Shown in pieces: positions 1,217 to 23,167 of a DNA stretch of 59,518 nucleotides. Within the stretch, counting starts at the first letter, position 1. Every line of letters begins with the position of its first letter. The stretch spans positions 46,099-105,616 of the forward strand of contig DYCH01000077.1 of NCBI GenBank assembly GCA_019418235.1, read 5' to 3'. The notes below the pieces were generated by a model. That model was not told the origin of the DNA. It saw nothing but the letters and a program-made list of their open reading frames with translations, and did not search any database. Source of the DNA: Sutterella sp. GTDB taxonomy: Bacteria; Pseudomonadota; Gammaproteobacteria; Burkholderiales; Burkholderiaceae_F. The position numbers were made by a program, and so were the translations under genes.

Positions 1217-1222
1217 CTTTCA

Positions 1223-1311: not shown

Positions 1312-1376
1312 CTGACTTAAGTTGAAAATCACACTACTTAAAGAAAGGATAACTTTCTTCAAAACTAAATATTAGC

Positions 1377-2363: not shown

Positions 2364-2476
2364 TTATCCAAAGAGAAATAACAATTTATTGATTTTAAAC
2401 AAAATTATACACTTCTAGTCATTGCCAAATTAGAAATTTGACATAAACGCTCTTCAAATTTTTTAAGGAAAATCCT

Positions 2477-4303: not shown

Positions 4304-4315
4304 TTTCTTAACGAA

Positions 4316-4346
4316 ACACAAGCAGGGGCTCCTCTCCTGCTTGTGT
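4316..4346 (+). other. intercistronic stem-loop between assT and dsbL
   Basis: ACACAAGCAGG/CCTGCTTGTGT 11-bp inverted repeat. Confidence 0.55.
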
Positions 4347-4400
4347 CAATTGGTTTTTAATAGTTTTAAAAACTACAAAACAAAGAAGAAGGATTTTCAA

Positions 4401-5048
4401 ATGTTTAAAAAATTCTTAGTAACGGCTGCCGCTTTAACGTGCTCTGCCATGGCGTTTGCCGCTCCCGTTGAAGGCACCGACTATGTGGTGTTGGATAAAC
4501 CCATCCCCAACGCTCAAGGCACCTTCATCAAGGTCTACTCCTACGACTGCCCCTTCTGCTATCGCTATGACAAGGGTGTCGTGCCCGTGATCAAGCAAAA
4601 GCTTGATAAAGAACTCAAGTTCTTGGACTACCACCTCCACACCAAAGGCAAGTACGGCAACGAAGGCGATGAAGTTTTGGCTACCCTTTGGGTTGAAGAC
4701 GAGGCCGCTGGACGCGATCCGGTCGCTGAAGGTTCCATGCACAAAAACGCTAAGTTCGCCCTTTATAAGGCCTACCACGATCAAAAAGAACGTTGGGATG
4801 CCGGTGCCGATGCTTTCATCAAGACCGCTCTTGACGCCGCAGGCATGAGCCGAGCTGATTTTGATGCTAAGAAGCAAGACCCGAAGGTGCAAGCTTTGGT
4901 TAAGGCTTGGAAGGACAGCACCTATGATGTTGCCAAGATCCAAGGGGTTCCCGCTTTTGTTGTGAACGGCAAGTACCTTTTAAAGACCGCTGCGATTCGC
5001 TCGATTGATAGCATGGTCGAGAACGTGCGTGAACTTTCCAAGAAGTAA
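4401..5048 (+). CDS. dsbL: DsbA-family thiol:disulfide oxidoreductase DsbL, copy 1
   Basis: CPFC active site, GVPAF cis-Pro loop, signal peptide; ATG at 4401 preceded by AAGGA. Confidence 0.9.
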   Translation: MFKKFLVTAAALTCSAMAFAAPVEGTDYVVLDKPIPNAQGTFIKVYSYDCPFCYRYDKGVVPVIKQKLDKELKFLDYHLHTKGKYGNEGDEVLATLWVEDEAAGRDPVAEGSMHKNAKFALYKAYHDQKERWDAGADAFIKTALDAAGMSRADFDAKKQDPKVQALVKAWKDSTYDVAKIQGVPAFVVNGKYLLKTAAIRSIDSMVENVRELSKK

Positions 5049-5389
5049 TCCGAGGCTCGAATGAAAGGCTTTTTTAAAGATTTCAAAACCGAGCCGATGA
5101 ACACATTGGCTCGGTGGCAAGACACGCGAGAGCCGTGGTTACTCTTTGCGATTACCTCTGTTCTTTTGGTGTTGATTGCCCACTACGTGTTCCAAGACTG
5201 GATGCACATGCTGCCTTGTGAGCAATGCGTCTATATCCGTTACGGCAATTTAGTGATGGCCTTGGGTGCATTCATTGTGGCGATTAAACCGCAATGGATT
5301 TGGGGCAAGATTGCCGGCGTGGGTATCTTCCTCTATGGTTTGATTTACACGATGCTTTGCTCGTGGAAATTGATCAAGATTCACGATGC
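4764..5389 (+). repeat. ~626-bp identical inverted repeat, left copy (dsbL 3' part plus dsbI 5' part)
   Basis: Matches the reverse complement of 24127-24752 base for base by eye; synonymous differences resume on both sides. Confidence 0.88.
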
Positions 5390-5729
5390 GGTGCACTCCG
5401 ATGACCCGATGGCGATGTTCGGTCTTCAAGGTTGCTCAACGGATGCGAAGTATCACTTTGGTCTTCCGTTAGATAAGTGGGCACCGGACTGGTTTAAGCC
5501 TACGGGTGACTGCGGTTACGATGCGCCTGTGGTAGCACCCGGCGTGGAATTATCCGACCTTCAACGCTGGTTTATTGAACTTTATCAATCAACGGATGGT
5601 TGGTACTTGATTCCGCAATGGAAGTTCATGGACATGGCCGAGTGCTGCATGTTGGCTTGTGTGTGCTATGCCATTTTATTGATTGCTCTGTTGTGGGCTT
5701 GGGTGAAACGTGATTTCTTGACGAAATAA
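5061..5729 (+). CDS. dsbI: DsbB-family disulfide oxidoreductase DsbI, copy 1
   Basis: PCEQCVYIR motif, transmembrane helices, GCS and PTGDCG periplasmic cysteines. Confidence 0.9.
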   Translation: MKGFFKDFKTEPMNTLARWQDTREPWLLFAITSVLLVLIAHYVFQDWMHMLPCEQCVYIRYGNLVMALGAFIVAIKPQWIWGKIAGVGIFLYGLIYTMLCSWKLIKIHDAVHSDDPMAMFGLQGCSTDAKYHFGLPLDKWAPDWFKPTGDCGYDAPVVAPGVELSDLQRWFIELYQSTDGWYLIPQWKFMDMAECCMLACVCYAILLIALLWAWVKRDFLTK

Positions 5730-5756
5730 ATATTTGTAGGAAAATCAAAGAGATTT

Positions 5757-5786
5757 AAGAGGTTTTGAGTTTCAAAACCTCTTTTT
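5757..5786 (+). terminator. intrinsic terminator after dsbI
   Basis: AAGAGGTTTTGA/TCAAAACCTCTT stem plus T run. Confidence 0.75.
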
Positions 5787-5847
5787 CGTTACGAAGGACA
5801 TTTCAGACAAATCGACACTCAGAGCAACCATATGATGATTTTTTAGC

Positions 5848-5914
5848 ATTTTTTCGACATATTTTCTTGATATGTCGATGGCATCGACATATCCCACGAA
5901 TGTGTCGAAAAAAT
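5848..5914. repeat. nested palindrome: two TCGACATAT-N7-ATRTGTCGA sites 30 bp apart
   Basis: Arms at 5854-5862, 5870-5878, 5884-5892 and 5900-5908; the whole unit is dyad-symmetric about 5881. Confidence 0.85.
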
Positions 5915-5961
5915 AATAATTTTCATCATTGCACAAAAAATATGCAAAAAAATAAGTTGAA

Positions 5962-6423
5962 TTAGGGACGATACCGAATCGGTCGTTGAATCCCTAATTC
6001 TTTGAGCTTCTCACTCTCTGGATCAATAATCGTAAAGCAACTCTTAATTTCTTCAGGTACTTCAATCGGCATACCGGTTTTAAAGTCAATGAACACCCAC
6101 GTTGTCGCACCAATGCACACCAAAGTGTCTCCTCGCTTAATCGCATAGCGACGCAATGAGCGAGAGGCGTGCCAACTATCGACCCAACTGTAGATCGTTA
6201 ACTCGTCGCCCTCGTAAGTAGGACGCAAATATTCAATCCAATGCTGCTTAGCCACCCAAACCTGTTGACGTTTAATAAGCGTTCGAGCGTCCCATCCGAG
6301 TTCTGCTGCATGAGCGCTTGCCGCATCTTCCATCCAACGTAAATACTCGCGATTATTCACATGACGAAAGACATCGATAGATTCTTTTCCGACAACAAAA
6401 TGATGTTCGTAAATTTCAGACAT
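5962..6423 (-). CDS. hotdog-fold acyl-CoA thioesterase (4HBT/YbgC-like)
   Basis: IDVFRHVNNREYLRWMEDA motif (D-x-x-x-H-V-N-N-x-x-Y). Confidence 0.85.
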   Translation of the reverse strand: MSEIYEHHFVVGKESIDVFRHVNNREYLRWMEDAASAHAAELGWDARTLIKRQQVWVAKQHWIEYLRPTYEGDELTIYSWVDSWHASRSLRRYAIKRGDTLVCIGATTWVFIDFKTGMPIEVPEEIKSCFTIIDPESEKLKELGIQRPIRYRP

Positions 6424-6533
6424 TTCAAACTTAAAAATAAACGTTAAAGCGAGGAAAAAGAATAAACCTTTTTTGCCTCATTAACACGCCCATTCACGTT
6501 TTGCAACAACTACACATTTGTACATTTGTTACT

Positions 6534-7316
6534 TTACTGGCGAATTTTGAACCCAACTTTCAATAAAGCAACCGCTCCACTAAAACACAACACCAAGACA
6601 ACGCTTCCCCACAAAGCCGACTCCCAGGGACTCGTTTCAAATCCTCCCAAAAAGCCGCCTCGAAACCCATCAATCAGATAAAACATGGGATTAAAAAACG
6701 TGAGCTGCTGCCACGTCTCCGGTAACGCTTTCGTGGAGTAAAAAACACCGGATAAAAACGTCAAAGGCATGATGATGAAGTTTTGAATCACGCCCATCTG
6801 TTCATAACGATCGGCCCAAATTGCGGTTATTAATCCGAGAGTTGCCATCATCATGGCGCCTTGAAGGGCAAAAACCGCAATCCACACAAAATTGTCAATC
6901 GTGGGACTCACCCAAAACATTGTCCCAACCCAAACGCACAAACCCACAAAAAGTCCTCTTAATGTCGCCGATAAAACATAAGCCAATGCAATCTGCGCGC
7001 TCGACAAGGGGGGCATCAAAATAAAACTCAATGTCCCCGAAATCTTTGACTGAATAAAAGACGATGACGTATTAGCAAAAGCGTTTTGCAAAACTGCCAT
7101 CATCACGAGCCCCGGAACCAAGAAGTCGAGGTAGGAATAGGAGTCGCTTACAACCATTCTTTCTTGAAGTACAGCACCAAACACGATCAAGTACAGTAAA
7201 GAGGACAAAACAGGAGCGGCTACCGTGTGAAAGGCCACCTTTTTAAAACGAATAATTTCCTTTTTCAAAAGCGTTAAAAAGGCAATGTGTGAATGAAAAA
7301 TCTGTGCGCGAACCAT
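6534..7316 (-). CDS. ABC-2 type transporter permease (YadH-like)
   Basis: YLDFLVPGLVMMAVLQNAFAN, PLTFLSGVFYS and NPMFYLIDGFR motifs. Confidence 0.85.
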   Translation of the reverse strand: MVRAQIFHSHIAFLTLLKKEIIRFKKVAFHTVAAPVLSSLLYLIVFGAVLQERMVVSDSYSYLDFLVPGLVMMAVLQNAFANTSSSFIQSKISGTLSFILMPPLSSAQIALAYVLSATLRGLFVGLCVWVGTMFWVSPTIDNFVWIAVFALQGAMMMATLGLITAIWADRYEQMGVIQNFIIMPLTFLSGVFYSTKALPETWQQLTFFNPMFYLIDGFRGGFLGGFETSPWESALWGSVVLVLCFSGAVALLKVGFKIRQ

Positions 7317-7319
7317 GCA

Positions 7320-8222
7320 CTACTCCGATAACAATTTCACGAAAACATCTTCCAGACTCGCTTGCGAAAGTGTGAGATTTTCTGGCGTTACGTTCGCCTT
7401 CAAAAGTGTCTGAAGAATACCGTTGAGGTCTTTTGTGTCTGCAAAAGAGAGAACATAATTGTGGTTTTGTTGTCGTAACACTTTTGATGCCAACTCTTTG
7501 GGAAGCTCAGCATTCGTAAGACGAAATTGCACAGTGCTTTGCTGAAAGTTCTCTAATAACCGATCGGTTTTATCTTGAGCGACTATTTCCCCGTGATTCA
7601 AAATGGCAACGTTAGAGCACAAATTTTGGGCTTCTTCCAAGTAGTGCGTCGTCAAGATGACGGTGTGACCTTTTTGATGCAAACGACCGATAAATTTCCA
7701 AAGTTGATGACGAAGTTCAACATCAACGCCTGCGGTGGGTTCATCAAGCACGATGACAGGAGGTTTATGCACCAACGCCTGAGCAACGAGTACGCGTCTT
7801 TTCATGCCACCGGATAACAAACGTGTCGGGGTTTGTGCCTTGTCTTGAAGGCCCAACTCGTGCAAGAGTTCATCAATCCAATCATCATTTTTTGCCAAGC
7901 CGTAATAACCGCTTTGAAAGCATAATGTTTCCCGCACCGATAAAAACGGATCGTAGATAATTTCTTGCGCAACCACGCCTAAATTCATGGACGCAGCGAC
8001 TCGATCAGAAACAATGTCTTTGCCAAGCACTTTCACGCTCCCCTTTGTCGGCAAAACCAGTCCGGAAAGCGTATTAATCAGAGTGGATTTACCGGCACCG
8101 TTTGGCCCTAAAAGCGCGAAAAAATCCCCCTCTTCGACTTTTAAAGAAATCCCTTTAAGCGCCTGAAATCCGTTTTTATAAGTTTTCTCTAATTGATCAA
8201 TTTCAATAGCAAAACGTTGCAT
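7320..8222 (-). CDS. ABC transporter ATP-binding protein (YadG-like)
   Basis: GPNGAGKST, LSGGMKRR, LDEPTAGVD. Confidence 0.9.
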   Translation of the reverse strand: MQRFAIEIDQLEKTYKNGFQALKGISLKVEEGDFFALLGPNGAGKSTLINTLSGLVLPTKGSVKVLGKDIVSDRVAASMNLGVVAQEIIYDPFLSVRETLCFQSGYYGLAKNDDWIDELLHELGLQDKAQTPTRLLSGGMKRRVLVAQALVHKPPVIVLDEPTAGVDVELRHQLWKFIGRLHQKGHTVILTTHYLEEAQNLCSNVAILNHGEIVAQDKTDRLLENFQQSTVQFRLTNAELPKELASKVLRQQNHNYVLSFADTKDLNGILQTLLKANVTPENLTLSQASLEDVFVKLLSE

Positions 8223-8225
8223 TTT

Positions 8226-8933
8226 TTAATCCATCTCATATCGAACGGGAATCACCAAAGCCACGGCCATTTTTGCGCTCGTCTGCAAGTTATTTAATGC
8301 TCTGGCAGCATCCATGGTTGCACGCCTAAAAAGGGCATTTCCACCCTCTTCAAGTCCATAATGCGTAACTCGGCCGTCACTACCCACCACCACTTTCAAA
8401 TGCGTGATGCCTTCTAAACCAATATCGCGGGCGCGCTTGGGATAACGCTTATGACGTTCAATCACATCAACGATTTCTTTAAGGGCAACGGCGGTAGGAT
8501 TCTCACTTCCGGAAGAGCCTTGAGTAGACATTGCCTTTTGTGCGCTACCTACGCTTTTTTGCACAGCCTTGGGCTTGACTTTCGTGGGTTTAGTAGGCTT
8601 TGTTTTCTTAACCACAGGCTTTTCAACCAACGGTTTCTTTTCTTTTTTAATAACGGGTTCATCTTCTTTGAGCTTCACCTGCCAGACGCTATCGGGCACG
8701 GTCATTAATACCCAATCGCGTTCAATTTGCATGGGATTGGCACTCAAATCCACTTTGACAGGTAATGCTGTTTTTAACGCTGCCTGTTGAGCGATTTTCA
8801 ATGGTTCAGACAGCGCCAAAAACGACAAAAAACAAAACCCAATCATCAACATCGTCACCGAGAGTTTGGCGGCCAAAGACGCTTCTTTGGCCTCAGAAAT
8901 GCGATCCTGTGATGGCTTTGTTAGTAATCTCAT
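8226..8933 (-). CDS. tonB: TonB-family energy transducer
   Basis: N-terminal TM, Lys/Pro-rich linker, C-terminal YPKRARDIGLEG TonB_C motif; downstream of exbBD. Confidence 0.82.
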   Translation of the reverse strand: MRLLTKPSQDRISEAKEASLAAKLSVTMLMIGFCFLSFLALSEPLKIAQQAALKTALPVKVDLSANPMQIERDWVLMTVPDSVWQVKLKEDEPVIKKEKKPLVEKPVVKKTKPTKPTKVKPKAVQKSVGSAQKAMSTQGSSGSENPTAVALKEIVDVIERHKRYPKRARDIGLEGITHLKVVVGSDGRVTHYGLEEGGNALFRRATMDAARALNNLQTSAKMAVALVIPVRYEMD

Positions 8934-9334
8934 TTCTTTGCTCTTGTGCTGATAACAAAGCGCCCCTCGTTTTTCTCTTTAGCCAAATCCACCAAAGAAA
9001 CAAAACGATTAAACGGAGCCTTGCTATCCATATGAATGTTTAAAACACTTTGCTTGACGCTTAAGATTTTCTTTTCCACATCCGCTAAAGAAACGGACTG
9101 ATTGTCCATCCAGTACGACCCGTCCTCACGAACAAAAACACTCATTTGTCGATCTGCCCGTTTGACTTCAGAGACCTTACTTTCAGGTAAAACGATTTCC
9201 AAAACCGGACGCGAAAAACTCATCGTTAAAACAAAGAAAATGATGAGCATGAAAAGGCAGTCAATGAGTGGCGTTAAATCGATCTGGGGCTCTTCATCCA
9301 AAGGAGAAAGGCCAGAAGACAAGAAAATACTCAT
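8930..9334 (-). CDS. exbD: ExbD/TolR biopolymer transport protein
   Basis: IDLTPLIDCLFMLIIFF motif. Confidence 0.9.
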   Translation of the reverse strand: MSIFLSSGLSPLDEEPQIDLTPLIDCLFMLIIFFVLTMSFSRPVLEIVLPESKVSEVKRADRQMSVFVREDGSYWMDNQSVSLADVEKKILSVKQSVLNIHMDSKAPFNRFVSLVDLAKEKNEGRFVISTRAKK

Positions 9335-9978
9335 TCGCCTTCCCCTTGTGAAACCTTTTGCGCATTTTGCGTTTTAGCGCGTAAGCGTTGCATCACCTCC
9401 AAAGCGCGATAGCTGTGCTCGACGGCTTCAATATGAAAGCCTCTAAACTTCAGCATCAAGGCGTAGTAGACCATCAAAGTCGGAATCGCTACACACAGCC
9501 CCATCACGGTCGTAATCAATGCCTGCCAAATGCCGCTTGCCAGAACTTCCGTGGAGGCCATTTCGGTGAAGGAAAGCGATTGGAAAACCGCCACCATGCC
9601 AAAGACCGTACCCAACAAACCAAGTAAAGGTGAAATGACGCTAATTAATTTGAGCCAACAAAGGCCATTGCTGACACTTTTGAAATTGCGATGAAAGAGG
9701 TAGGCGACTTCAGCTCGAACGTCATCGGAGTGAGCGCCGTGCGTGGCCACAATGTCGTAAATAATCCGAATCAAGGGATTGGCATTTTTGCGATCCAGGT
9801 CTTTCAGACAGCGATCTTTCCCATGCTCTAAATCCAAAAAGTCACGTCGGAAGTTTTTCCACACGCGCGACAAATAGACCGATAACCAAACGGAAAGATA
9901 AACGGCATAAAAGGCCACAAAAACCAATGCCACGCCCGCAGGCCCCAACAATTCATAAAGAGACTCGAGGTTTTGCAT
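9331..9978 (-). CDS. exbB: MotA/TolQ/ExbB proton channel protein
   Basis: SPLLGLLGTVFGM and GIWQALITTVMGLCVAIP motifs. Confidence 0.9.
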   Translation of the reverse strand: MQNLESLYELLGPAGVALVFVAFYAVYLSVWLSVYLSRVWKNFRRDFLDLEHGKDRCLKDLDRKNANPLIRIIYDIVATHGAHSDDVRAEVAYLFHRNFKSVSNGLCWLKLISVISPLLGLLGTVFGMVAVFQSLSFTEMASTEVLASGIWQALITTVMGLCVAIPTLMVYYALMLKFRGFHIEAVEHSYRALEVMQRLRAKTQNAQKVSQGEGE

Positions 9979-9986
9979 TTTTTGCT

Positions 9987-10496
9987 CTATTGGAAAATGG
10001 ATTTAAATGCATCAACGGCGTCTTGACAGTCCTTTTCATCGGGGTGAGAGGCCGCTGCCGCCCACGTGACTTCACGCTCCGGTGTGTAGTGAGCCGAATT
10101 TTGTCTAAATTGCTTCATCAAAATCGGACTTAATTTCCCACGGCAAAGAAACGTCCCTTTGATCGTATTGTTTTTCTCATTGCCCACAATTTTTTGGCAT
10201 TGGGCTTCAAACCATGTTTGTGCCTTGGGCGAGGTGGGATCGCCCGTCATCGTTGAAAAAATGCCCAACGTTTTATCGTGAATCAACGGCAACAATTCAT
10301 TTAAATCCGGTGGCAACCCACCCTTATCGCACCAAAAGCCCACAATCACCGTGTCACTGTCATTAATAAGTGCCGGATTAGTTTTCACATCCAACGTTCT
10401 GGCTAATTTCATCGTGGGGTAAGCGGCAACAATGGCTTGCGCCACTTTGTAGGTGTTACCCGTCACAGAACTCACAACAAGTACCGGATTTTTCAT
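9987..10496 (-). CDS. flavodoxin-superfamily protein (HmuF-like)
   Basis: SSVTGNT FMN loop, GFWCDKG, FLCRGK, C-terminal SHPDEKD and a His in the cap insert; heme-operon context. Confidence 0.75.
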   Translation of the reverse strand: MKNPVLVVSSVTGNTYKVAQAIVAAYPTMKLARTLDVKTNPALINDSDTVIVGFWCDKGGLPPDLNELLPLIHDKTLGIFSTMTGDPTSPKAQTWFEAQCQKIVGNEKNNTIKGTFLCRGKLSPILMKQFRQNSAHYTPEREVTWAAAASHPDEKDCQDAVDAFKSIFQ

Positions 10497-11002
10497 TATG
10501 CGTTCTCCTTGGTGCCGAATTGATTCTTTGCGTCCATGAAACCCTTTTTCACAGATTCAATCAGTTGATGATTTTCGCGACCGACATAAACACAGAAATG
10601 CAACTTTTCGTCTTTGCCGAAGAAAGCCACGTAGTGGGATTCACGCCCCATAAAAGGCATGGAAATAAACGCAATCGTGCCCAACGCATCGGCATTGATA
10701 TGACCGCCCACGACGGCATCTTTGTCAAAAATGTTGTAGTAGCCCATGCCACGTTTACCGGCAGAGAGCTTTGAGGCGATCTCAAAGACATGGCCTTCAT
10801 GAAGAATAAAAAGCGTCACTTTTTCCCACGTGCTCATGGTTTCCCAAAGATAATCAAACACATCAACATCGCGCGCAAAAACGCAGTGTTCACTACCCAA
10901 CATTTGGGCAGCTTTGAGATCCGTGCAACCGATCTCTTTCGCAATTAGTCCAAGCGTCACGGGACGTTTTGCATTCATCAGTTCTTGGATTTTTTCGTTC
11001 AT
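10496..11002 (-). CDS. hutX: cytosolic heme carrier HutX/ChuX
   Basis: GYYNI, GGHI, PFMGRES and VYVGR motifs. Confidence 0.88.
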   Translation of the reverse strand: MNEKIQELMNAKRPVTLGLIAKEIGCTDLKAAQMLGSEHCVFARDVDVFDYLWETMSTWEKVTLFILHEGHVFEIASKLSAGKRGMGYYNIFDKDAVVGGHINADALGTIAFISMPFMGRESHYVAFFGKDEKLHFCVYVGRENHQLIESVKKGFMDAKNQFGTKENA

Positions 11003-11018
11003 TTTCTTTTCCTTTCGT

Positions 11019-12491
11019 TTAAAAATTCTTTTTCAATTCATCCATTCTCAGAGCGTGTTGTGCACACAATTGCAAAAGCTCCAAGTCATGGGTAATCAAC
11101 AAAATGGCTTTGCCCTTTTGAGCTTGATCCTTTAAGCACCGAGCAACGCGTTGCATGTTGGCGCCATCGAGTCCACTCGTGGGCTCATCAAGAATCAAAA
11201 TGTCAGGGTCTTTTGCCAACGCACAGGCAATCACCAAGCGTTGCTTTTGACCACCGGATAACGACTGCGGATGACGCTGCGCCAGAGGCGTTAAATCAAA
11301 CGTCTGCATCAATTCATCAATGCGAGTGTGTAAGTGATCCCTTTGCCCCGCAGCGAAAAGGCAAGCACTGATTTCTTCACTGACGGTTTGCATTTGCAGT
11401 TGATGGTCAGCGTTTTGCAAAACAAGTCCGGCGTGTTTAAGTAAGTCGCTCGCCTTCGTTTCTTTCCCTTTTAAGTAAAACGTTCCACTGCCCTCATTGA
11501 GGCCCGTCATTAAACGAGCCAAGGTCGTTTTCCCTGTACCGTTTTCTCCAATCAATGCGGTGATGCCCGTCCCTAAAGAGAAGGAAATATTTTTTAAGAG
11601 TTCCGCTCGATGAGAGACTTTTTCAGGGGTTTTAAAAATTCGTTTAAAGCGAGAAAAACCGCCACTTTGATTGTTTTTCTCGTAGTCAAAACTCACGCTT
11701 GAAGCGACTAAAATCGGTGAGTCATCGAGCGCTTGAGCCAATGTCTTTCGAACATCTTCAACATGAGCTTCACGCAAACCGTACTCGCATCGGATGTCAT
11801 CGTTTGTTAAAAGTTCAAAATCGCCTCTTTGGCAAATTTCGCCCTCGCGCATTACTAAGACTTGATCGGCAATGCCACGAAGCCAATGAATACGGTGATC
11901 AACCACTAAAATGGCAAAGCCTTGGCTTTTGAGGTTTCTCAACTCCTGCGCCAAACGTTCAGTGGCCTCAGGATCCAAGTTGGCCGAGGGTTCATCAAGA
12001 ATTAAAACTTTGGGTAAAGTCACCAAAATTTCACCCAACGCCACTCTTTGTTTTTGTCCTTCAGAAAGGGCCGTGATGGAATGCGACAAAAGCGATTCAA
12101 TCTCTAAGCGTTGCGCTACTTTTTTAATTCGTGTGTCGACCTCCTGTGCATTCACGCCCGCAGCTTTCAGCGCAAACCCCATTTCATCCTTCACGCCTAA
12201 TGCGAAAAACTGATCTTCTGGATCTTGAAAAAGGGTGCCAACGGTTTGAGAGAGTTCCCCTACCGAGGCGTCTTTCGTTTCAACACCATTGATTTTCACT
12301 GAACCCGACAAAGTGCCGGCGTAGTAATGCGGGCAAAGACCGTTGGCAATGCGCATTAAGGTGGTTTTCCCACAACCTGAAGCACCGGTAACAAGGAGAA
12401 CGCTTCCCGCCTCAACCTTGAAACTTAAGTCTTTAACCGCACAATCTGACTGAAAAGCGTAGCGATAAGAAACGTTTTTAAATTCGATCAT
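11019..12491 (-). CDS. ECF transporter ATPase with two fused ABC domains
   Basis: Two Walker A motifs (GASGCGKTT, GENGTGKTT), FQDPEDQF Q-loop, LSEGQKQR and LSGGQKQR. Confidence 0.9.
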   Translation of the reverse strand: MIEFKNVSYRYAFQSDCAVKDLSFKVEAGSVLLVTGASGCGKTTLMRIANGLCPHYYAGTLSGSVKINGVETKDASVGELSQTVGTLFQDPEDQFFALGVKDEMGFALKAAGVNAQEVDTRIKKVAQRLEIESLLSHSITALSEGQKQRVALGEILVTLPKVLILDEPSANLDPEATERLAQELRNLKSQGFAILVVDHRIHWLRGIADQVLVMREGEICQRGDFELLTNDDIRCEYGLREAHVEDVRKTLAQALDDSPILVASSVSFDYEKNNQSGGFSRFKRIFKTPEKVSHRAELLKNISFSLGTGITALIGENGTGKTTLARLMTGLNEGSGTFYLKGKETKASDLLKHAGLVLQNADHQLQMQTVSEEISACLFAAGQRDHLHTRIDELMQTFDLTPLAQRHPQSLSGGQKQRLVIACALAKDPDILILDEPTSGLDGANMQRVARCLKDQAQKGKAILLITHDLELLQLCAQHALRMDELKKNF

Positions 12492-12502
12492 CCATGGCCT
12501 CC

Positions 12503-13279
12503 TTACATCACGCCGAAACGGGTGACATTAAGTCCCCATTCAATCCAATGAAGTTCGATATAAATCGCCATCACTACGGTGAAAAGAGAAGCGATAAAGA
12601 GCCATGCATCCGCTTTAGAAAAATCCGATTGATCCTGAAAATTCATCGCCCCTTTTCGTTGAAGTCCCCGATCCAGTCCCTTGAGTTCTGCAGCAACCCC
12701 CAACGCTTCACTGCTTTTTAAAGCTCGAAATAGAAGTGGCGTAAAAAGTAAACGGGTACTCAAATACGGATGCCTTAAAACGAAAACGAAACCCATCGCC
12801 CAACCACGGATTTTGAGTGTTTCCCAAACTTGGGCCACATCATTGGTGAAAGTCGAAATGAACCGAATCATCACGGTTGCGGGCAACGTCAACATGAAAG
12901 GCAATCGCAGTTGGGTCAGAGCACTCATGATGTTTTCAATTTTGGTCGTCAATGCCATCCCCATCACGCAATTCATCATGGTCAAACCACGCAGGAAGGG
13001 AATAACGAGACTGGCAAACGTTATTTCGCCTAAACTCGGAATGAAGGAGGCCATCACCCAAGTGCAAGCACTTGCGAGCACCATCATCGCCCCCATGAGT
13101 AAGTACAAGACGAAAACCAACAGAGGGCGATTGATCAGAAGCACCATGACAAAACTCACGGTAAAGAGCACCAATTGCGCCCCCAATGTTGAAAACGCAA
13201 TGGTGGCGATAGCTCCCAAAACCGTCAGCAAAATTTTGCTTCTGGCGTCGAGTTGATTTAAAACGGAATGCGCCATCAT
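12503..13279 (-). CDS. ECF transporter T component (CbiQ/EcfT family)
   Basis: LDARSKI N-terminus, IRFI and KIRG coupling motif; lies between S component and ATPase. Confidence 0.85.
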   Translation of the reverse strand: MMAHSVLNQLDARSKILLTVLGAIATIAFSTLGAQLVLFTVSFVMVLLINRPLLVFVLYLLMGAMMVLASACTWVMASFIPSLGEITFASLVIPFLRGLTMMNCVMGMALTTKIENIMSALTQLRLPFMLTLPATVMIRFISTFTNDVAQVWETLKIRGWAMGFVFVLRHPYLSTRLLFTPLLFRALKSSEALGVAAELKGLDRGLQRKGAMNFQDQSDFSKADAWLFIASLFTVVMAIYIELHWIEWGLNVTRFGVM

Positions 13280-13837
13280 TTAGCTCCTCACAATGCCCGC
13301 ATGACGCAATTCACGAAGGGAGCGGTAACCGGCATATAGCCCCATCAAAGAACCGATGTAACCGATCGCAATGATGGGAATGACGGACACCACCATGGCA
13401 GGCGTCTCTCGCATCATTAAATAAGAAACGCCTAAAGAAAAGACTTTGCTCGCGAGATCGTAAACAGCAACGCCAACAAAGGGCCCCCATGCTTTTTTCG
13501 CTCCGCCAACAATTAAAATGGCCACTTCTGCACAAAGCGCACCAACGATGGCTGCAGGCAACAAAGTAATGCTCGAACCCAATAGCAGCGCACTCACGAT
13601 CGTGGAGACGAGCGTAAAAACAACGAGCACACCGCTTTTACGAACCTTGGCCAATAAGACAATCAAAAGCGCCGAAAAAACAAGGTTTTTTAACATCAGA
13701 CTCACGGGATTCATGCCGCCACCGGCCAAAGCAATCAGTAGAGATGAAAGCTTGATGGCAGCAGCAAAAATCCCGATCGTCACGAGCTCTTGTGACTTCC
13801 AATAGGCCGTTTTCACGAGCTTATTTGTCATCGTCAA
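13280..13837 (-). CDS. putative ECF S component (MptD/Trep_Strep-like); alternative ATG at 13831
   Basis: ~185-aa hydrophobic protein with ELVTIGIF N-terminus, AKVRKSG and terminal RHAGIV; adjacent to EcfT and EcfAA. Confidence 0.75.
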   Translation of the reverse strand: MTMTNKLVKTAYWKSQELVTIGIFAAAIKLSSLLIALAGGGMNPVSLMLKNLVFSALLIVLLAKVRKSGVLVVFTLVSTIVSALLLGSSITLLPAAIVGALCAEVAILIVGGAKKAWGPFVGVAVYDLASKVFSLGVSYLMMRETPAMVVSVIPIIAIGYIGSLMGLYAGYRSLRELRHAGIVRS

Positions 13838-13843
13838 AGCGCT

Positions 13844-15892
13844 TTAGAAACGAGCATTGAGTTTGACGGCAAAATGACGACCCGCTTCGTAAATGGAGCC
13901 ATTATTTTGGTAGAGCTTATTGGTGATGTTGTAGAAACCGGCATCAAAGCTGTAGTTGCCTTGAGGACCGAAACTCACACCGCCCGTCAAATTGAAGGTC
14001 GTTGCACCACCGTAGCTGCTTTCGAGCTTGTCATCGGAGAAGTTCCATTGCTCGGTTGCCGATTGCGAGACGGCATAGGCGTCTAAACGAAGATCGTTGC
14101 CATAAATGCTCGTGCCATAGCGAACACCGTAGCGCGCGGTGATTGTCGGCGTTCCGGACTTCGTGCTCTTGATGCCGTTTTTGTTATATTCACGGCGCAA
14201 GAGGGTTAACGTGGTGTAGGGTTCAAAGTCACCCAACTTCAAACTAGTATCCAATTCAAAGCCGAGCGTTTTTGCACGACCGATGTTTTCGTAGTAATTG
14301 GCCACACCCCTTTGGATCGTTGCAATGTAGTTATCGGCATCGCTATAGAAAACCGCACCATCGATCGTGACAAGACCGGATTGATAACGAGCACCCACTT
14401 CAAAGTTATCTGACGTTTCAGGCTCTAAGTTCGGGTTGGCATAAGTTGTTGCGCCACCCATGGTGGTATCAATAAAGAGTTCTTGCAAGATCGGCGCACG
14501 ATAGCCTTGAGCCCAGTTAGCACGAAGCGTTAAATTATCCAGCGCACGGTAACTCAACCCTAAGTTAAAGACTGCCTTGCCGTCATCGTTCTTGTTCGAC
14601 GTTTGGGTGTGAGTCATTTGATTAGAAATATCCATGTCGTTGGATACCCAGGTGTAACGCACACCGTAATTGGCCGTCAACGCATCCGTTAAGGTGCTCT
14701 CCATCGTTGCAAACAAGGCATGACGAGTTTGATTACCATCGTAGTCTTCGTTTTTTGACCAATAGCTATCAGGAACAGGCATTGGTGAAACCTTTTTCAT
14801 GTATGTCTTGCTATTGGCATCCAAACTGTCATAGGTAAACTCGTAGCCGGTAATCAAATAGTGACGAGCGCCCAATGTCCAATCGGCTTGCACGCTTGCG
14901 CTGGTCGTATCCAAAACATTGTCAGCGAAGCTTTCAATGGCATACGGCATTCTCGGGCTCGGTCGAACATGATTGTTCATTTCCTTATCGTTTCGCTCTT
15001 GTGCGATATCGATACGAAGACGCGTTAAATAGTCATTGATGTTTTTAAATTCACCAAAGACGCTTCCACGCGTGCGCTTCCAAGACGGCACTTCGACATA
15101 AAAATCTTCCGCCGGATACAAAATGGAACCGGATTCAAAGTCGAGATCGTAGTGGCTCAAAGACAAACCGATCGTCTTATTGGGATCAATGTCATAGGAC
15201 AAAAAGGCATTGGCCGACTTTGAACTAAATTCGGTATTGGCCATCTTGCCTGCGGGCGTATCCAAGTTGTCGTAATCCTTTGTCGCGGCACCCAATCGAT
15301 AGTTCCAACCATTGACAGAACCTTGGATGGAAGCGGCCAAATCTTTACCGTTAGAAGCGGAATTAAAGCCAACAGAAGCGCTACCACCAAAAGGCGTATT
15401 GCCACCCTTTTTGGTAATGATGTTAATGGCGCCACCAATGGCATCAGAACCATACAAAACAGAAGCCGGTCCACGAATCACTTCAATGCGCTCGACTTGA
15501 GAGGGATCGATCAATAACGGAACACCCGACATGGATTTTTGTTCAGAAATTCGCTGACCATCGACCATCACAACGGTACGGAAAGCGTCTTCACCGCGAA
15601 TGGAAACACGGTCAATGCCTTGTCCGCCATCGTTTTGAATACGAATACCCGGCACGGTACTCTCTAGCAAATCGGCAATTGTCTTGGCTTGAGCATTGCG
15701 TTCAATCGTTTCGCGATCAATGACAGAAACACTCATATTGACGTCTGCCAAAGCCTTCTCAACGCGAGAAGCCGTGACAACCACATCTTGAGCATTTAAC
15801 GTTTCCATGGCAGAGACCGAGCCACTTGATAAAGCGGCAAAACTTAAAGCTAAAGCGGCCACTAACGGATTGGGAGTAAAACGAGGAGTCAT
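13844..15892 (-). CDS. TonB-dependent outer-membrane receptor, probably for heme
   Basis: DVVVTASR TonB-box region, IEVIRGPASVLYGSDAIGG plug motif, YRAP and NPNLEPE motifs typical of heme receptors, terminal Phe. Confidence 0.88.
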   Translation of the reverse strand: MTPRFTPNPLVAALALSFAALSSGSVSAMETLNAQDVVVTASRVEKALADVNMSVSVIDRETIERNAQAKTIADLLESTVPGIRIQNDGGQGIDRVSIRGEDAFRTVVMVDGQRISEQKSMSGVPLLIDPSQVERIEVIRGPASVLYGSDAIGGAINIITKKGGNTPFGGSASVGFNSASNGKDLAASIQGSVNGWNYRLGAATKDYDNLDTPAGKMANTEFSSKSANAFLSYDIDPNKTIGLSLSHYDLDFESGSILYPAEDFYVEVPSWKRTRGSVFGEFKNINDYLTRLRIDIAQERNDKEMNNHVRPSPRMPYAIESFADNVLDTTSASVQADWTLGARHYLITGYEFTYDSLDANSKTYMKKVSPMPVPDSYWSKNEDYDGNQTRHALFATMESTLTDALTANYGVRYTWVSNDMDISNQMTHTQTSNKNDDGKAVFNLGLSYRALDNLTLRANWAQGYRAPILQELFIDTTMGGATTYANPNLEPETSDNFEVGARYQSGLVTIDGAVFYSDADNYIATIQRGVANYYENIGRAKTLGFELDTSLKLGDFEPYTTLTLLRREYNKNGIKSTKSGTPTITARYGVRYGTSIYGNDLRLDAYAVSQSATEQWNFSDDKLESSYGGATTFNLTGGVSFGPQGNYSFDAGFYNITNKLYQNNGSIYEAGRHFAVKLNARF

Positions 15893-15942
15893 ATCAATTA
15901 AAGAGAAACAGTTATTGGCTTTTCTCTTGAGTTAAAAAACTT

Positions 15943-17358
15943 TTACTTGTATTGGGCTAAGCGGTGCGTGAGGACATTAAGAAGCAATTGACTCATCGTC
16001 ACGTGCCAAAACTGTCCCGCTAAGGTTTGCACCATCCAATCCCCGACCGGACGAATGAGACCCGCGTGAGTCCATTGCTCAAAAACATCTTGAGCAAGGC
16101 GACTCAAAGGAAGGTGGAAGCGCTCACTTAAAGCGTGAAGATTGATGCGGCCCAGTTCCATTTCAGAAGAAACCGTTTGAAGGCAATGCCAATGAGGCGA
16201 AGGCGCAGTTGCAAAGGCAATGGGTTTGATGCCCTCTAAGACCATCTTTTCCCATTCGTCATACTTGCGTTCCATCATGAAACTGTAGCCATTGATCTTG
16301 CCACCGGCCCCGGAGCCGAAAGCCAAACAGTCGGCTGCACTTTTGCCAAAACGGTTATAGAGGTTTCGCTCTCTAAACGTTTGTCCCCAGTGGTTGTTTG
16401 AAAGACGACGCCACTGGGCGTTAGAGAGAATTTCCACAGACTTTGCGAACATTTCGGATCGCTCGGCTTTGTCTGCCCCTGCAGGCAGTTTTCCATTCTG
16501 AATAAACTTGCCCAAAGGCGACTTTTCAAAGACATTGAGTTGATAGCAATCCACACCATCGAGCGGAAGGGAGGCTGCGGTTTTCACGTCGTCTTCCCAA
16601 ACTTCCATCGTTTGATACGGAAAGCCGTAAATGAGGTCACAAACGATGCTCGCTTGGTTATAAGAGGCTAACTTTTCAATCGCTGCAATTAAGCTCTCAC
16701 GATCATCAACTCGACGCATCGTTTGACGCACTTTGGCGTTGAAGGTTTGAACACCAAGAGAAATGCGGTTGACGCCTGCTTCAAAAGCAGCTTCCATTTT
16801 CTCTTCAGGGAAGTGATGAATTCGACCTTCAAGCGTAATTTCACAATCGTTGGCAAGGGGTAAATATTGACGAACGGCAGTGACCAATCGCTTGATATCA
16901 GCAGCCTCAAGAGCCGTCGGCGTACCGCCACCAAAATAAACAGCATGAAGAGGCGTTACTTGTTGAGCTTTTTTGTTTGACCAAAGTTGCAATTCTTTGA
17001 TTAACGTATCGGTATAGCGTTGACTGGAATCGCTTTGAAGCGGATTTTGATAAAAGAGGCAATAAAGGCAGCGTGTTTCACAAAATGGCACATGAATGTA
17101 GGCTAAGCCTGTTCCTTGGCGCTCGTTATCGAATTGCCCTTCAATGAGTTCTCGTGCCTCTTGACCCATGTAGGGACGCCCTGCCATTCGCGAGTGAACG
17201 GTGACTTTACTGTCAAAGGCATGCTTTAAAGGTTCATCCGTGACGGTGGCTTTAAAATCTGTAATTTCTTCAATTTGAGCGACGCCATTCATCATGCGCT
17301 TTTGACCGGCTTCAAATGAAGCGTGGGCATGATGAGGACATTTTTGAGGCTTTTCCAT
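15943..17358 (-). CDS. hutW: anaerobic heme-degrading class C radical SAM methyltransferase ChuW/HutW
   Basis: YIHVPFCETRCLYC (CxxxCxxC), YFGGGTPT, PLANDCEITLEGR, HW...ERNLYN; hutX in the same operon. Confidence 0.9.
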   Translation of the reverse strand: MEKPQKCPHHAHASFEAGQKRMMNGVAQIEEITDFKATVTDEPLKHAFDSKVTVHSRMAGRPYMGQEARELIEGQFDNERQGTGLAYIHVPFCETRCLYCLFYQNPLQSDSSQRYTDTLIKELQLWSNKKAQQVTPLHAVYFGGGTPTALEAADIKRLVTAVRQYLPLANDCEITLEGRIHHFPEEKMEAAFEAGVNRISLGVQTFNAKVRQTMRRVDDRESLIAAIEKLASYNQASIVCDLIYGFPYQTMEVWEDDVKTAASLPLDGVDCYQLNVFEKSPLGKFIQNGKLPAGADKAERSEMFAKSVEILSNAQWRRLSNNHWGQTFRERNLYNRFGKSAADCLAFGSGAGGKINGYSFMMERKYDEWEKMVLEGIKPIAFATAPSPHWHCLQTVSSEMELGRINLHALSERFHLPLSRLAQDVFEQWTHAGLIRPVGDWMVQTLAGQFWHVTMSQLLLNVLTHRLAQYK

Positions 17359-17387
17359 AATTAATCCTGTAAGAAAATCTCACATTT

Positions 17388-17406
17388 GTAAATGAGAATC
17401 ATTATC
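17388..17406. promoter_or_regulatory. Fur box, proximal to the heme operon
   Basis: GTAAATGAGAATCATTATC, 16/19 match to GATAATGATAATCATTATC, ~30 bp upstream of hutW. Confidence 0.8.
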
Positions 17407-17495
17407 GTTTTGAGAATATTAATTATGAAAAGAGTTTTTTCAAGCAGAAACTACTTAGTTAATAGACGATAGCTATCAAATGTTGAAAATTGATA

Positions 17496-17520
17496 GTTAA
17501 TATTAATGATTATCGTTTTC
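17496..17520. promoter_or_regulatory. distal overlapping Fur boxes
   Basis: GTTAATATTAATGATTATC (15/19) overlapping ATTAATGATTATCGTTTTC (14/19). Confidence 0.55.
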
Positions 17521-17531
17521 ATTAAATGCAT

Positions 17532-17569
17532 AGAAAATGCCGTAGAACAATCGCCTACGGCATCTTTCT
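17532..17569 (-). terminator. terminator of the AspT/YidE gene
   Basis: ATGCCGTAG/CTACGGCAT stem followed by a T run on the minus strand. Confidence 0.65.
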
Positions 17570-17591
17570 CAGGAGCAATCATCACCAAAAG

Positions 17592-19271
17592 CTAGAACAC
17601 GTACGACCACATGGCTAGCAAAATCAATTGACCCGTAATGATGCGCAAGAACATGGCTAACGGATAAACCGTCGAATAGGCCACGGGCGCGGCATTCTTT
17701 TCAGACAAGGTGGAGGCGTACGCCAAGATGGGAGAGTTCGTGCCTAAGCCAATCAAGAGACCCACGATGCTGTGGTAATTCAGTTTGCAGAAGACGCGAG
17801 CGATAATCCCCACCACCAATTGCGGCACGATCGTAATACAGCACCCGATCAACGCAAAAAGAAGACCGTTACCCGTAATCAAAGCGTTCACAAACGTATC
17901 GCCTGCCGACAACCCGACACTTGCCAAGAAAAGAGAAATCCCAATTTCTCGACTCATTAAGTTCGAGGACGGCGTCATGTAGGTGGAAAGGTGCAAAGAC
18001 GCCCCATAGCGACCCAACAAAATGGCAATGATCAAGGGGCCACCGGCCATCCCTAATTTAATCGGTGTGGGCATGCCCGGAATGGCTAACGGCAAGGAAC
18101 CAAAAATAATCCCCAAGGTCATCCCCATAAAGATGGCGGCAATATTGGGTTGATCCAAGTGCTTGGCTTGATTGCCTAAACGACCTTCGAGGCGTTTCAC
18201 GGCGTTCTCTGGCCCCACACACTGCAGCACGTCACCCACTTGAATGTGCAAGTTCGGATGCGGGAAAAGTTCAGTACCGGCACGGAACACACGCGTAATG
18301 TTGACGCCATCGGTGGCAGCCAACGACAAACTGTCAATCGTTCTGCCGCTCAAAGATGACAAGGACACCAAGAATTTGGCACGAACCAACGGTGTATGCG
18401 CCGTTTCCAAATTGATGCGTTCATCTTCTTTACCGAAAGCAGCAATGATGTCGCGCTTATGTTCCGGCGTTGAAACCACACGAATCGTATCGCCAACATG
18501 CAAAACGGTCTCCGGCAGCGGACTGATGATTTCGCCCGCATGCATCACACGCGAACAAATGAAGGGACGCGGAATACGTTGGTGCGATTGCGTGATCGTC
18601 ACACCATCCAACAAGTGATTCGTGATGTAGATGTGAAAAGACACCGGCGCTTGACTGATCTCACGCTCTTCAACATCCCAATGACGGTCTTCTTCAGCCA
18701 TGTCGATTTTGAAGATCCAACGCAAGAAAATCGACACGCCGATAATCGCTGTCAAGCCTAAGGGATAAGCACAAGCGTAGGCGGCTGCAATGTCATTGCC
18801 TTGATAGTTCAATTGATTTAAGGCTTCTTGCGTGGCACCAAGACCGGGCGTATTGGTGATAGCGCCGTAGTGGATACCTAAAATCTCAGGTAATGAAACC
18901 GTGTCAGAGAATAAAAAGAACGCACTGATGGTAATGATGATACTGAGCGCCCAACCGAAAACCATGAGGGAATTGAGCACCACCCCTACACTCTTAAACG
19001 ACGAGAAAAAGGAAGGACCGACTTGCAACCCAATAAAGAAAATAAAGATGATGAGGCCAAAATCTTTGGCAAAGGCCAACACGTCCATGTTGACGCGAAC
19101 ACCAAAATAGCTAAAAGCCAACCCCACGAACAAAACAACGATGGAGCCCAAAGAAATGCCAAAGAATTTGATGCGCCCAATCCCCAAACCAATTGAGATG
19201 ATGGCCATGTAAACGAGGACAATATGGGCAATGGAATTAGGGTCTGTTAGAAGAGTATTGAGCCACTGCAT
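17592..19271 (-). CDS. AspT/YidE/YbjL-family transporter with two TrkA-C domains
   Basis: GLQVGPSFF, GAITNTPGLGA, KLGMAGGPL and YSTVYPLAMFLRI motifs; start set at the ATG of MQWL. Confidence 0.88.
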   Translation of the reverse strand: MQWLNTLLTDPNSIAHIVLVYMAIISIGLGIGRIKFFGISLGSIVVLFVGLAFSYFGVRVNMDVLAFAKDFGLIIFIFFIGLQVGPSFFSSFKSVGVVLNSLMVFGWALSIIITISAFFLFSDTVSLPEILGIHYGAITNTPGLGATQEALNQLNYQGNDIAAAYACAYPLGLTAIIGVSIFLRWIFKIDMAEEDRHWDVEEREISQAPVSFHIYITNHLLDGVTITQSHQRIPRPFICSRVMHAGEIISPLPETVLHVGDTIRVVSTPEHKRDIIAAFGKEDERINLETAHTPLVRAKFLVSLSSLSGRTIDSLSLAATDGVNITRVFRAGTELFPHPNLHIQVGDVLQCVGPENAVKRLEGRLGNQAKHLDQPNIAAIFMGMTLGIIFGSLPLAIPGMPTPIKLGMAGGPLIIAILLGRYGASLHLSTYMTPSSNLMSREIGISLFLASVGLSAGDTFVNALITGNGLLFALIGCCITIVPQLVVGIIARVFCKLNYHSIVGLLIGLGTNSPILAYASTLSEKNAAPVAYSTVYPLAMFLRIITGQLILLAMWSYVF

Positions 19272-19431
19272 AGCGGTCACCGAAAAACCAGAACAACAAC
19301 AGATTAAGTGTAGACCCAAGCCACTCAAAAAAATCAAAACTAAGCATAAACCATTAGTCTTTTGAGACCATTGACATCACTTCGAAATTAACAGTTGTGG
19401 CGATTGCCAAAAAAATAGTTGACTACAAAAG

Positions 19432-22660: not shown

Positions 22661-23167
22661 TTATTTTGTTAAATTGCTGTACTTGCAATGACACTCCCAC
22701 GTTTCGTGAAACATTTCCCTTGTGGTGTCCCATTCGTTATAAAATTCACTTTCTGTCTTACAAAAACCAAACTTTGAATAGAGATGTCGAGCTGGTTTCA
22801 AAATATCAAGAGTACCTAAAATAATATGCGAATACCCCTTTTCTTTACAAAACGCCATTGCAATTTCTAATAATTTTGAACCTAATCCCTGTCCCTGAAA
22901 ATCCGCATCAACCCCAAACCAACGCAATTGTGCTTGATCATTACCTCTCCTGATAATAGCGATATCCCCCACAATATTTCCTTTGCATTCTGCTATCCAC
23001 ATTTGACTACCTTCCAAATCATTGTAAAGTTCAGCCATTCCAGACAACATCTCTTTTTCATAGAAGCCATTAAAACCATACATTTTCTTGTACAGTTGAT
23101 ATTGAAAGTAGCAAACCTTACTGGGATCACCAGGTTCATAAGTACGAATTACAACATTGTTTTCCAT
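22661..23167 (-). CDS. GNAT-family N-acetyltransferase
   Basis: QLRWFGVDADFQGQGLGSKLL acetyl-CoA motif A and ARHLYSKFGF motif B. Confidence 0.9.
   Translation of the reverse strand: MENNVVIRTYEPGDPSKVCYFQYQLYKKMYGFNGFYEKEMLSGMAELYNDLEGSQMWIAECKGNIVGDIAIIRRGNDQAQLRWFGVDADFQGQGLGSKLLEIAMAFCKEKGYSHIILGTLDILKPARHLYSKFGFCKTESEFYNEWDTTREMFHETWECHCKYSNLTK

Follow-up and report, generated by a model that had tools for sequence, protein, structure and literature searches.

The window analyzed here is a stretch of 59,518 nucleotides from a Sutterella species (contig DYCH01000077.1), and its subject is a gene cluster that joins haem-degradation genes to a transporter of the energy-coupling factor (ECF) type. 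Open reading frame (ORF) listing and family scans place ten co-directional genes on the minus strand between positions 8226 and 17358, in the order hutW, TonB-dependent receptor, ecfS, ecfT, fused ecfAA, hutX, flavodoxin, exbB, exbD, and tonB. Successive intergenic gaps from hutW to tonB measure 50, 6, 0, 11, 16, -1, 8, -4, and -4 nucleotides. An earlier note on this DNA, made from its letters alone, had described just such a cluster; all ten genes are present where it put them, and no gap exceeds 50 nucleotides. From hutW onward, the genes are the following.

15943 to 17358, minus strand: hutW/chuW, a radical S-adenosylmethionine (SAM) anaerobic haem-degrading methyltransferase, or anaerobilin synthase (TIGR04107, PF04055)
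13844 to 15892, minus strand: TonB-dependent outer-membrane receptor, probably for haem (Plug and barrel domains)
13280 to 13837, minus strand: ECF S component of an MptD/Trep_Strep-like clade, the proposed haem-binding subunit (PF09605; 185 amino acids)
12503 to 13279, minus strand: EcfT transmembrane coupling subunit (PF02361 CbiQ, 56.3 bits)
11019 to 12491, minus strand: fused EcfA-EcfA' ATPase (two ABC_tran stretches in a 490-amino-acid protein)
10496 to 11002, minus strand: hutX/chuX cytoplasmic haem carrier (TIGR04108)
9987 to 10496, minus strand: HmuF/FldH-like flavodoxin, a proposed haem-trafficking anaerobilin reductase (PF12641, 105.4 bits)
9331 to 9978, minus strand: exbB (PF01618, 83.7 bits)
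8930 to 9334, minus strand: exbD (PF02472, 83 bits)
8226 to 8933, minus strand: tonB (PF03544, 32.7 bits)

A haem locus of the HmuTUV/ChuTUV kind holds a PF01497 binding protein and a FecCD permease. The earlier note saw no such ATP-binding cassette (ABC) system in the cluster, and the family scans agree: neither a Peripla_BP_2 nor a FecCD gene lies there. The receptor translation shows a signal peptide and a TonB-box-like DVVVTAS, and the translations of HutX and the flavodoxin, judged by eye, show no signal peptide. Therefore, no product of the cluster resembles a periplasmic binding protein.

ECF transporters are known as importers, classically of vitamins and metals. Here, ecfS matches PF09605 (Trep_Strep) at 31.5 bits, just above the cut-off of 28.7; its true start may be the ATG at residue 3. 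The fused EcfAA scores 257.1 bits against TIGR01166 (cut-off 211.8) and 310.1 bits against TIGR04520, just under the cut-off of 315. The genome possesses a single CbiQ-family (EcfT) gene and a single Trep_Strep gene. The S protein was modelled with AlphaFold (AF2) on the basis of a 19-row alignment; the model shows six helices and a predicted local distance difference test score (pLDDT) of 79.6. Foldseek's best PDB match for this model is the ECF S component 5edl (probability 1.00, TMq 0.63, E value 2.4e-3). In a VIA-align comparison with 48,161 chains, which is independent of Foldseek, ECF S components fill all of the first 12 rows (Z 8.6-10.7 over 153-173 residues): the YkoE-type 5edl, ThiT, BioY, PanT, RibU, CbiM, and FolT. 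CbrT (Z 6.4) and BtuM (Z 6.2) follow lower down. Complex prediction of S with EcfT returned "weak support" (0.59, versus 0.00 for the best control), with runs agreeing in at least 90% of contacts and partner pLDDT of at least 73; haem was co-folded and left unscored. In calibration, 58 of 80 solved complexes reached this mark, as did 2 of 110 mismatched pairs, and scores of 0.60 or below took in only 7 of the 80 solved complexes but both passing mismatches. Given that solved ECF complexes exist, the S-EcfT pass may mirror likeness rather than binding. As judged from the models and family matches together, the S, T, and AA genes are a real, dedicated ECF module.

The S component belongs to a small clade. 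At E values of 1e-3 or below, 460 relatives were recovered from a 90% cluster database, the named ones coming from Sutterella and Desulfovibrio, and 115 clusters from a 50% representative library among 1.84 billion proteins. With 115 clusters in total, the clade is therefore narrow. Among distant relatives, the Atlas gave only MptD-named clusters, and ten cluster look-ups returned "MptD family" or no name; sources call these relatives "MptD family putative ECF transporter S component." An NCBIfam scan of ecfS matched no model besides MptD, a profile search of solved chains returned nothing at E values up to 10, and Pfam gave no match to the RibU, BioY, or CbiM families. The MptD/Trep_Strep family is not known to have an assigned substrate. 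Polar residues shared by all of 80 S proteins are K50, N51, E104, D127, R143, E144, and Y160; K29 is found in 79.

Those 80 proteins define the loci on which our comparison rests: they are the best 80 of at least 114 relatives confirmed by a genome-collection scan with the S profile. Window proteins were compared with the loci by tblastn and by all-against-all ORF clustering, and counts were limited to loci with enough flank. By hand count of record titles, the loci comprise 35 from Sutterellaceae (Aphodousia, Sutterella, Duodenibacillus, Parasutterella, Turicimonas, and Dakarella), 23 from Desulfovibrionaceae (Desulfovibrio, Bilophila, including Bilophila wadsworthia ATCC 49260, Mailhella, and Lawsonia-labelled), 11 from Mucispirillum/Deferribacteres, 3 from Succinivibrionaceae, and 8 with unspecific titles. 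Two of the last eight are labelled as Firmicutes families yet carry the receptor and exbBD and resemble Sutterella loci. The nearest of the best 80, at 97% identity, is from Candidatus Aphodousia sp. (L002).

Among assessable loci, hutW is present in 69/69, the receptor in 72/73, ecfT in 78/78, ecfAA in 73/73, hutX in 71/72, the flavodoxin in 68/70, exbB in 59/68, exbD in 58/66, and tonB in 59/61, always in unchanged order. Besides antisense shadow ORFs, clustering across the 80 loci found no further family in most of them, and thus no periplasmic binding protein is conserved with the operon. Other linked families are a DtxR-type repressor (25/80), an ABC-2 exporter pair (24/80, Sutterellaceae only), and a MatE pump (16/80). 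The earlier note had called the operon a hybrid. Its combination of hutW, ECF genes, and receptor is kept across 80 loci and three phyla; the layout is a widespread module rather than a one-off. A midpoint-rooted FastTree of 76 EcfAA sequences gathers Deferribacteres, Desulfovibrionaceae, and Succinivibrionaceae in one clade each and splits Sutterellaceae in two. This tree, indicative only and with support values not read, would fit a few transfers between lineages.

The degradation genes are likewise well defined. HutW scores 512.8 bits against TIGR04107 (cut-off 400), and its translation contains CxxxCxxC. HutX reaches 117.3 bits against TIGR04108 (cut-off 110) and matches PDB entries 5exv (E value 1.2e-19) and ChuX 2ovi (E value 5.3e-16). 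The sole solved relative of the flavodoxin by sequence is 8G64 (FldH, a Fusobacterium nucleatum HmuF paralogue; E value 1.5e-7). Passages of PMC10404700 describe HmuF and FldH as binding flavin mononucleotide (FMN) and haem, trafficking haem to HmuW, and reducing anaerobilin. In the numbering used in those passages, the FldH linker residues A147, H150, P151, and D155 are identical in the window flavodoxin, with a 3-residue offset. All 75 flavodoxin orthologues carry a TGNT FMN loop, and 74 carry the H-P...D motif. Moreover, HutX and the flavodoxin are fused into one protein of ~405 amino acids in nine Deferribacteres-labelled loci, mostly Mucispirillum, which supports joint working of the two. 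Those loci are L047 (12782-13999), L040, L048, L051, L056, L063, L065, L071, and L072; the ChuX_HutX domain spans residues 87-210 and Flavodoxin_3 residues 237-396. The earlier note reported neither ChuY nor HutZ. Its HutZ half stands, with no HugZ-family (TIGR04109) match in the genome and no HemS (PF05171) match either; for ChuY, no search was made. Absence of ChuY and HutZ would be explained by the HmuF/FldH-like flavodoxin taking that place.

A second HutW paralogue (47-50% identity, above the TIGR04107 cut-off) was seen at L088:8997-10367, L092:9093-10463, and L093:9606-10976, in genomes G011, G223, and G175. Its neighbors in G011 are the genes for MetK, nitroreductase, TyrS, and AdoHcy hydrolase, with no transporters among them; in G175, the ABC-2 pair stands on one side of it and the main operon, from which it faces away, on the other. 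We rejected the paralogue as part of this system, given its housekeeping surroundings in G011.

The earlier note held that a need for a separate HmuTUV elsewhere in the genome would overturn its reading. Such a pump is not generally available. In the fetched flanks, a FecCD permease occurs at 1 of the 80 loci, and a homologue of the binding protein found elsewhere in the Sutterella genome itself occurs at none. We further surveyed the window's GTDB family, with 232 genomes. Of these, 64 have the S gene (8 of 26 genera, and 12 of 23 same-genus genomes), 67 have hutW, and 56 have both (hand count). FecCD is missing from 26 of the 232, including 8 of the 64 S-positive genomes, and 5 of these 8 (G196, G197, G203, G205, and G223; 91-97% complete) also have no Peripla_BP_2 match. 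Four of the five were checked and hold the entire operon, ABC-2 pair included; G203 has hutW and the S gene on separate contigs. Thus, in the five genomes without a binding-protein/FecCD pump, the ECF module is the only transporter tied to haem genes.

The physiology of the host suggests why intact haem could matter. The genome, which is 98.85% complete, has no ALAD and no ferrochelatase match, and its two closest relatives (G010 and G019, each 99% complete) likewise lack ALAD. The genome nonetheless carries an intact gene for cytochrome bd subunit I (572.5 bits), and three genes for b-type cytochromes score above cut-off. With ALAD and ferrochelatase missing yet cytochrome bd encoded, import of intact haem is probably needed, and the gene content suggests that the species probably depends on it. 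The haem island is the only recognizable haem system in the genome. We dropped c-type cytochromes from this account: only two ORFs have two or more CxxCH motifs, despite a Cytochrom_C_asm match. That match (G000 contig C21:14392-14952, 53.7 bits) is interrupted by a TAG stop and may be what is left of a former cytochrome c system.

Candidate control elements lie in the 233-nucleotide leader upstream of hutW.

17496 to 17520, minus strand: distal Fur-box-like site (15/19 match; one copy of the 24-nucleotide direct repeat D5)
17388 to 17412, minus strand: proximal Fur-box-like site (16/19 match at 17388-17406; second D5 copy; just downstream of the promoter-like -10)
17443 to 17416, minus strand: sigma-70-like promoter candidate TTGAAA-16-TAATAT (consensus match; adjoins the proximal Fur-box-like site)

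These two sites, whose D5 copies are 108 nucleotides apart, bear out the Fur boxes of the earlier note. All 19-mers were scored against the E. coli Fur consensus; at 15/19 or better, the 1.87-Mb genome yields 15 matches in about 10 distinct places (hand count), two of which sit in this leader. Promoter-like sites in the region number 15, versus 15.5 expected by chance, so the TTGAAA-16-TAATAT call is weak. No convincing minus-strand terminator occurs inside the cluster, and the next strong hairpin is at 5757-5783. At 25 of the 80 loci, a DtxR/iron-dependent repressor family gene stands beside the operon (e.g., L049:16982-17539). Together, the Fur sites and neighboring DtxR genes point to an iron-supply role. 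The DtxR-type gene is often accompanied by a MatE pump gene (16/80 loci), and the window has Fur boxes instead.

The best explanation of the locus is a Fur-repressed haem acquisition and utilization island of a Sutterellaceae gut bacterium. Because of its genome context, we read the ECF module as the putative inner-membrane haem importer of a Gram-negative haem operon, with a probability of about 0.7. The earlier note had likewise proposed that haem passes from the receptor to the ECF S component without a periplasmic binding protein; every prediction of this proposal that could be computed held, with haem binding drawn from context. From the same context, we infer haem as the S substrate, a direct hand-over from periplasm to S, and a division of labor among HutX, the flavodoxin, and HutW. 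The notion is that haem would cross the outer membrane via the TonB-dependent receptor, energized by the island's own ExbB-ExbD-TonB. In the periplasm, the membrane-embedded S component would pick up haem directly, without help from a soluble binding protein, and EcfT-EcfAA would move it into the cytoplasm at the cost of ATP. There, HutX and the HmuF-like flavodoxin would hold the haem, and HutW would open its ring without oxygen and free the iron. The flavodoxin would then reduce toxic anaerobilin, in place of ChuY/HutZ. The same route would probably also supply haem as a cofactor to this apparently tetrapyrrole-auxotrophic host with its cytochrome bd and b-type cytochromes.

Somewhat less firmly, we favor a broader proposal: that this is a widespread, undescribed class of Gram-negative haem importer. 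In gut anaerobes (Sutterella, Parasutterella, Bilophila, Desulfovibrio, Mucispirillum, and Succinatimonas), an ECF transporter with its own S clade would have displaced the binding-protein pump. It would take haem straight from the periplasm, perhaps via Tyr160 and with Lys/Arg residues pairing with the propionates. For a haem auxotroph in one or more lineages, this transporter would be the sole cofactor route, and haem would be the first substrate of an MptD-like S component.

Several observations weigh against haem import by the ECF module. The substrate is assigned from gene neighborhood, and the comparison with other inner-membrane routes covered FecCD and Peripla_BP_2 systems. ecfS scores only 22 bits against the TIGR02185 MptD model (cut-off 76.45). 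Eight S-positive family genomes lack hutW: one owes its place to a 21-bit match that is probably false, another is a fragment, completeness is 80-85% in four, and the other two (G182 and G208, both 96% complete) look like real exceptions. The Sutterella-type genome G182 has S-T-AA without hutW or receptor (L091, G182:C1:1066000-1085900). The low MptD score and the G182 locus would suit an alternative in which the ECF module imports something else that the pathway needs, such as a metal, a SAM-related compound, or the flavin that the flavodoxin uses, and haem crosses by another transporter. The classical vitamin and metal cargoes of ECF transporters, and an S component with no solved relative by sequence, lean the same way. 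We consider this alternative improbable, because the narrow S clade sits between receptor (72/73) and hutX (71/72), Pfam gives S no match to the RibU, BioY, or CbiM families, five carriers are devoid of both FecCD and Peripla_BP_2 systems, and no other transporter gene is conserved in the neighborhood. At L091, a second EcfAA-like gene was also seen ~3 kb beyond S-T-AA, preceded by membrane ORFs without Pfam match; it may belong to a second, divergent ECF-like module.

A further set of adverse points concerns haem specificity. The receptor's best NCBIfam match is the haem/haemoglobin receptor model TIGR01785, at 232.9 bits, below the cut-off of 316.85. Its translation shows YRAP-18-NPNL without His. 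Haem receptors carry a FRAP/NPNL box with a conserved His; judged by a loose pattern, a box-like motif occurs in 34 of 75 receptor orthologues and a spacer His in none. PDB matches of the receptor are plug-driven and mixed (CirA, PhuR, BtuB, and ShuA); we dropped them as uninformative about specificity. The S clade has no invariant His: H179 (70/80) is the only well-conserved one, and it lies in a basic C-terminal tail predicted to be cytoplasmic from the positive-inside pattern. In the window flavodoxin, a His stands opposite the axial His134 of FldH, in a column that is unconserved among 75 orthologues (G 24, D 16, gap 9, and others); exceptions to this axial His are also on record in passages of PMC10404700.

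The receptor score, its spacer without His, and the missing invariant His in S would suit a system that imports porphyrins and metalloporphyrins broadly (protoporphyrin, coproporphyrin, or other dietary or host tetrapyrroles), with haem as one substrate or a minor one. ChuW and HutW accept several metal-free porphyrins, according to passages of PMC10114669. Broad porphyrin uptake is nevertheless unlikely: Fur and DtxR control points to iron supply, HutX and HmuF/FldH relatives bind haem, and a probably haem-auxotrophic host with cytochrome bd needs haem itself. The auxotrophy does not extend to carriers in general, a trait that we rejected because ALAD is present in 213 of the 232 family genomes, including most operon carriers. 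For the majority of other carriers, iron supply is the more likely purpose of the operon.

Finally, the genome holds one FecCD/binding-protein/ATPase system, on contig C44. The best NCBIfam name for its ATPase is "heme ABC transporter ATP-binding protein" (173.5 bits, cut-off 261), and its binding protein is best matched by a ferrichrome-type model (90.9 bits, cut-off 374). If this system, or one of the Dpp/Opp type, carried haem in this genome, the ECF module would be accessory, redundant, or concerned with haem or product handling; ECF transporters are known as importers, which speaks against an accessory role. Pumps of the C44 kind are the rule in Gram-negative haem loci, as stated in passages of PMC10404700, but we deem haem import by C44 hardly likely given that no receptor stands beside it, its binding protein looks ferrichrome-type, and the same operon occurs in genomes without a FecCD or Peripla_BP_2 gene.

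Beyond tonB, the operon is followed on the same strand by a further pair of genes.

6534 to 8222, minus strand: ABC-2 type exporter pair (ATPase 7320-8222, PF00005 and PF13732; permease 6534-7316, PF01061)

The pair begins 3 nucleotides after tonB, is YadGH-like, and scores 202.6 bits against NF011648 (cut-off 225). Compared with an operon-less genome of the same genus (G021), window positions 6427-17598 form one block: in G021, the thioesterase gene (window 5972-6426) directly adjoins the YidE/YbjL-type transporter gene (window 17599-19272). Because 6427-17598 is absent from G021 as one block, the ABC-2 genes are part of an insertion/deletion unit of ~11.2 kb. No flanking repeats were found at the island borders. 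Linkage of the pair to the operon is seen in 24 of the 80 loci, all Sutterellaceae-type, either downstream of the operon or divergently upstream; the pair is absent from the Desulfovibrionaceae and Mucispirillum loci. Our guess is that it exports haem or a linear tetrapyrrole product.

Other features of the flanks deserve mention. Window positions 357-5971 have no counterpart beside the G021 thioesterase gene and may be a second indel beside the haem island. A low-GC (guanine plus cytosine) stretch at 22661-23616 contains a GNAT acetyltransferase gene and a MarR gene. On the minus strand at 23787-27000, an arylsulfotransferase gene (ASST, 443 bits) precedes genes resembling DsbA and DsbB, a layout of the AssT-DsbL-DsbI type.

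If haem import by the ECF module is borne out, diderms would gain a third way of bringing haem across the inner membrane, next to HmuTUV-type pumps and Dpp-type systems. An orphan ECF S clade would gain a substrate, and haem-ECF transport would extend from two Gram-positive pathogens to abundant gut anaerobes. How haem, which is hydrophobic and toxic, could cross the periplasm without a chaperone would become a mechanistic question. Bilophila, Desulfovibrio, Mucispirillum, and Sutterella carriers are linked to inflammation and to meat- or haem-rich diets, and haem scavenging could bear on their ecology. The cultured carriers among the loci, namely Bilophila wadsworthia ATCC 49260, Parasutterella muris DSM 111000, Sutterella parvirubra YIT 11816, and Succinatimonas hippei YIT 12066, make this reading directly testable.

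The earlier note knew of no characterized example of this architecture, and we found none either: a full-text literature search, covering few subscription journals and no supplements, returned no Gram-negative ECF haem importer and no description of this operon. An earlier bioinformatic prediction of the system may exist in print. Literature leads that combined anaerobilin or HutX with ECF proved irrelevant (EcFldA, ECF sigma factors, and the histidine HutXYZ system).

The closest Gram-negative parallels are hmuTRUVWF of Fusobacterium nucleatum, chu of E. coli O157:H7, and hut of Vibrio cholerae. As the operon described here would do, these loci bring together a TonB-dependent haem receptor, often with ExbBD-TonB, a radical-SAM enzyme that opens the haem ring (HmuW/ChuW/HutW), a haem carrier in the cytoplasm, and a reductase for anaerobilin. 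The HmuF-type flavodoxin is common to Fusobacterium and to this operon (passages of PMC10404700). Whereas hmu, chu, and hut use a periplasmic binding protein, a FecCD-type permease, and an ATPase, ecfS-ecfT-ecfAA occupies that slot here.

A precedent for the proposed hand-over comes from cobalamin. Passages of PMC6072759 present BtuM as an S-component-like cobalamin transporter of Gram-negative bacteria, co-localized with btuB in genomes that lack BtuCDF. As proposed here for haem, a TonB receptor feeds a tetrapyrrole to an S-type membrane protein with no periplasmic binding protein (PMC6072759, same passages). BtuM differs in having no ECF module and in binding cobalamin through Cys; the operon here has a full T-AA module, and its presumed cargo is haem. 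Within the MptD/Trep_Strep family (PF09605, TIGR02185), the S component sits at the margin, scoring just above cut-off with the Pfam model and far below it with the NCBIfam model, and its clade is small and distinct.

On the Gram-positive side, SiaFGH of Streptococcus pyogenes is reportedly an iron-regulated, dedicated ECF module in a haem-acquisition locus. LhaSTA of Staphylococcus lugdunensis resembles the module described here in the same respects, being an iron-regulated, dedicated S-T-A module within a haem-acquisition locus (passages of PMC7299338). In that account, LhaS binds haem and LhaSTA supplies haem iron. LhaS spectra suggested His ligation (PMC7299338, same passages), whereas the S clade here has no invariant His; haem binding would therefore have to differ, and the invariant Tyr160 is a candidate ligand by its conservation. 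LhaSTA and SiaFGH are Gram-positive systems, without an outer membrane, TonB receptor, or hutW, hutX, and flavodoxin genes. The module here, unlike them, lies between a TonB-dependent receptor and anaerobic degradation genes. By analogy, then, the system may be pictured from either side: as a chu/hut/hmu locus whose inner-membrane pump has been swapped for an ECF module, or as LhaSTA/SiaFGH placed behind an outer membrane.

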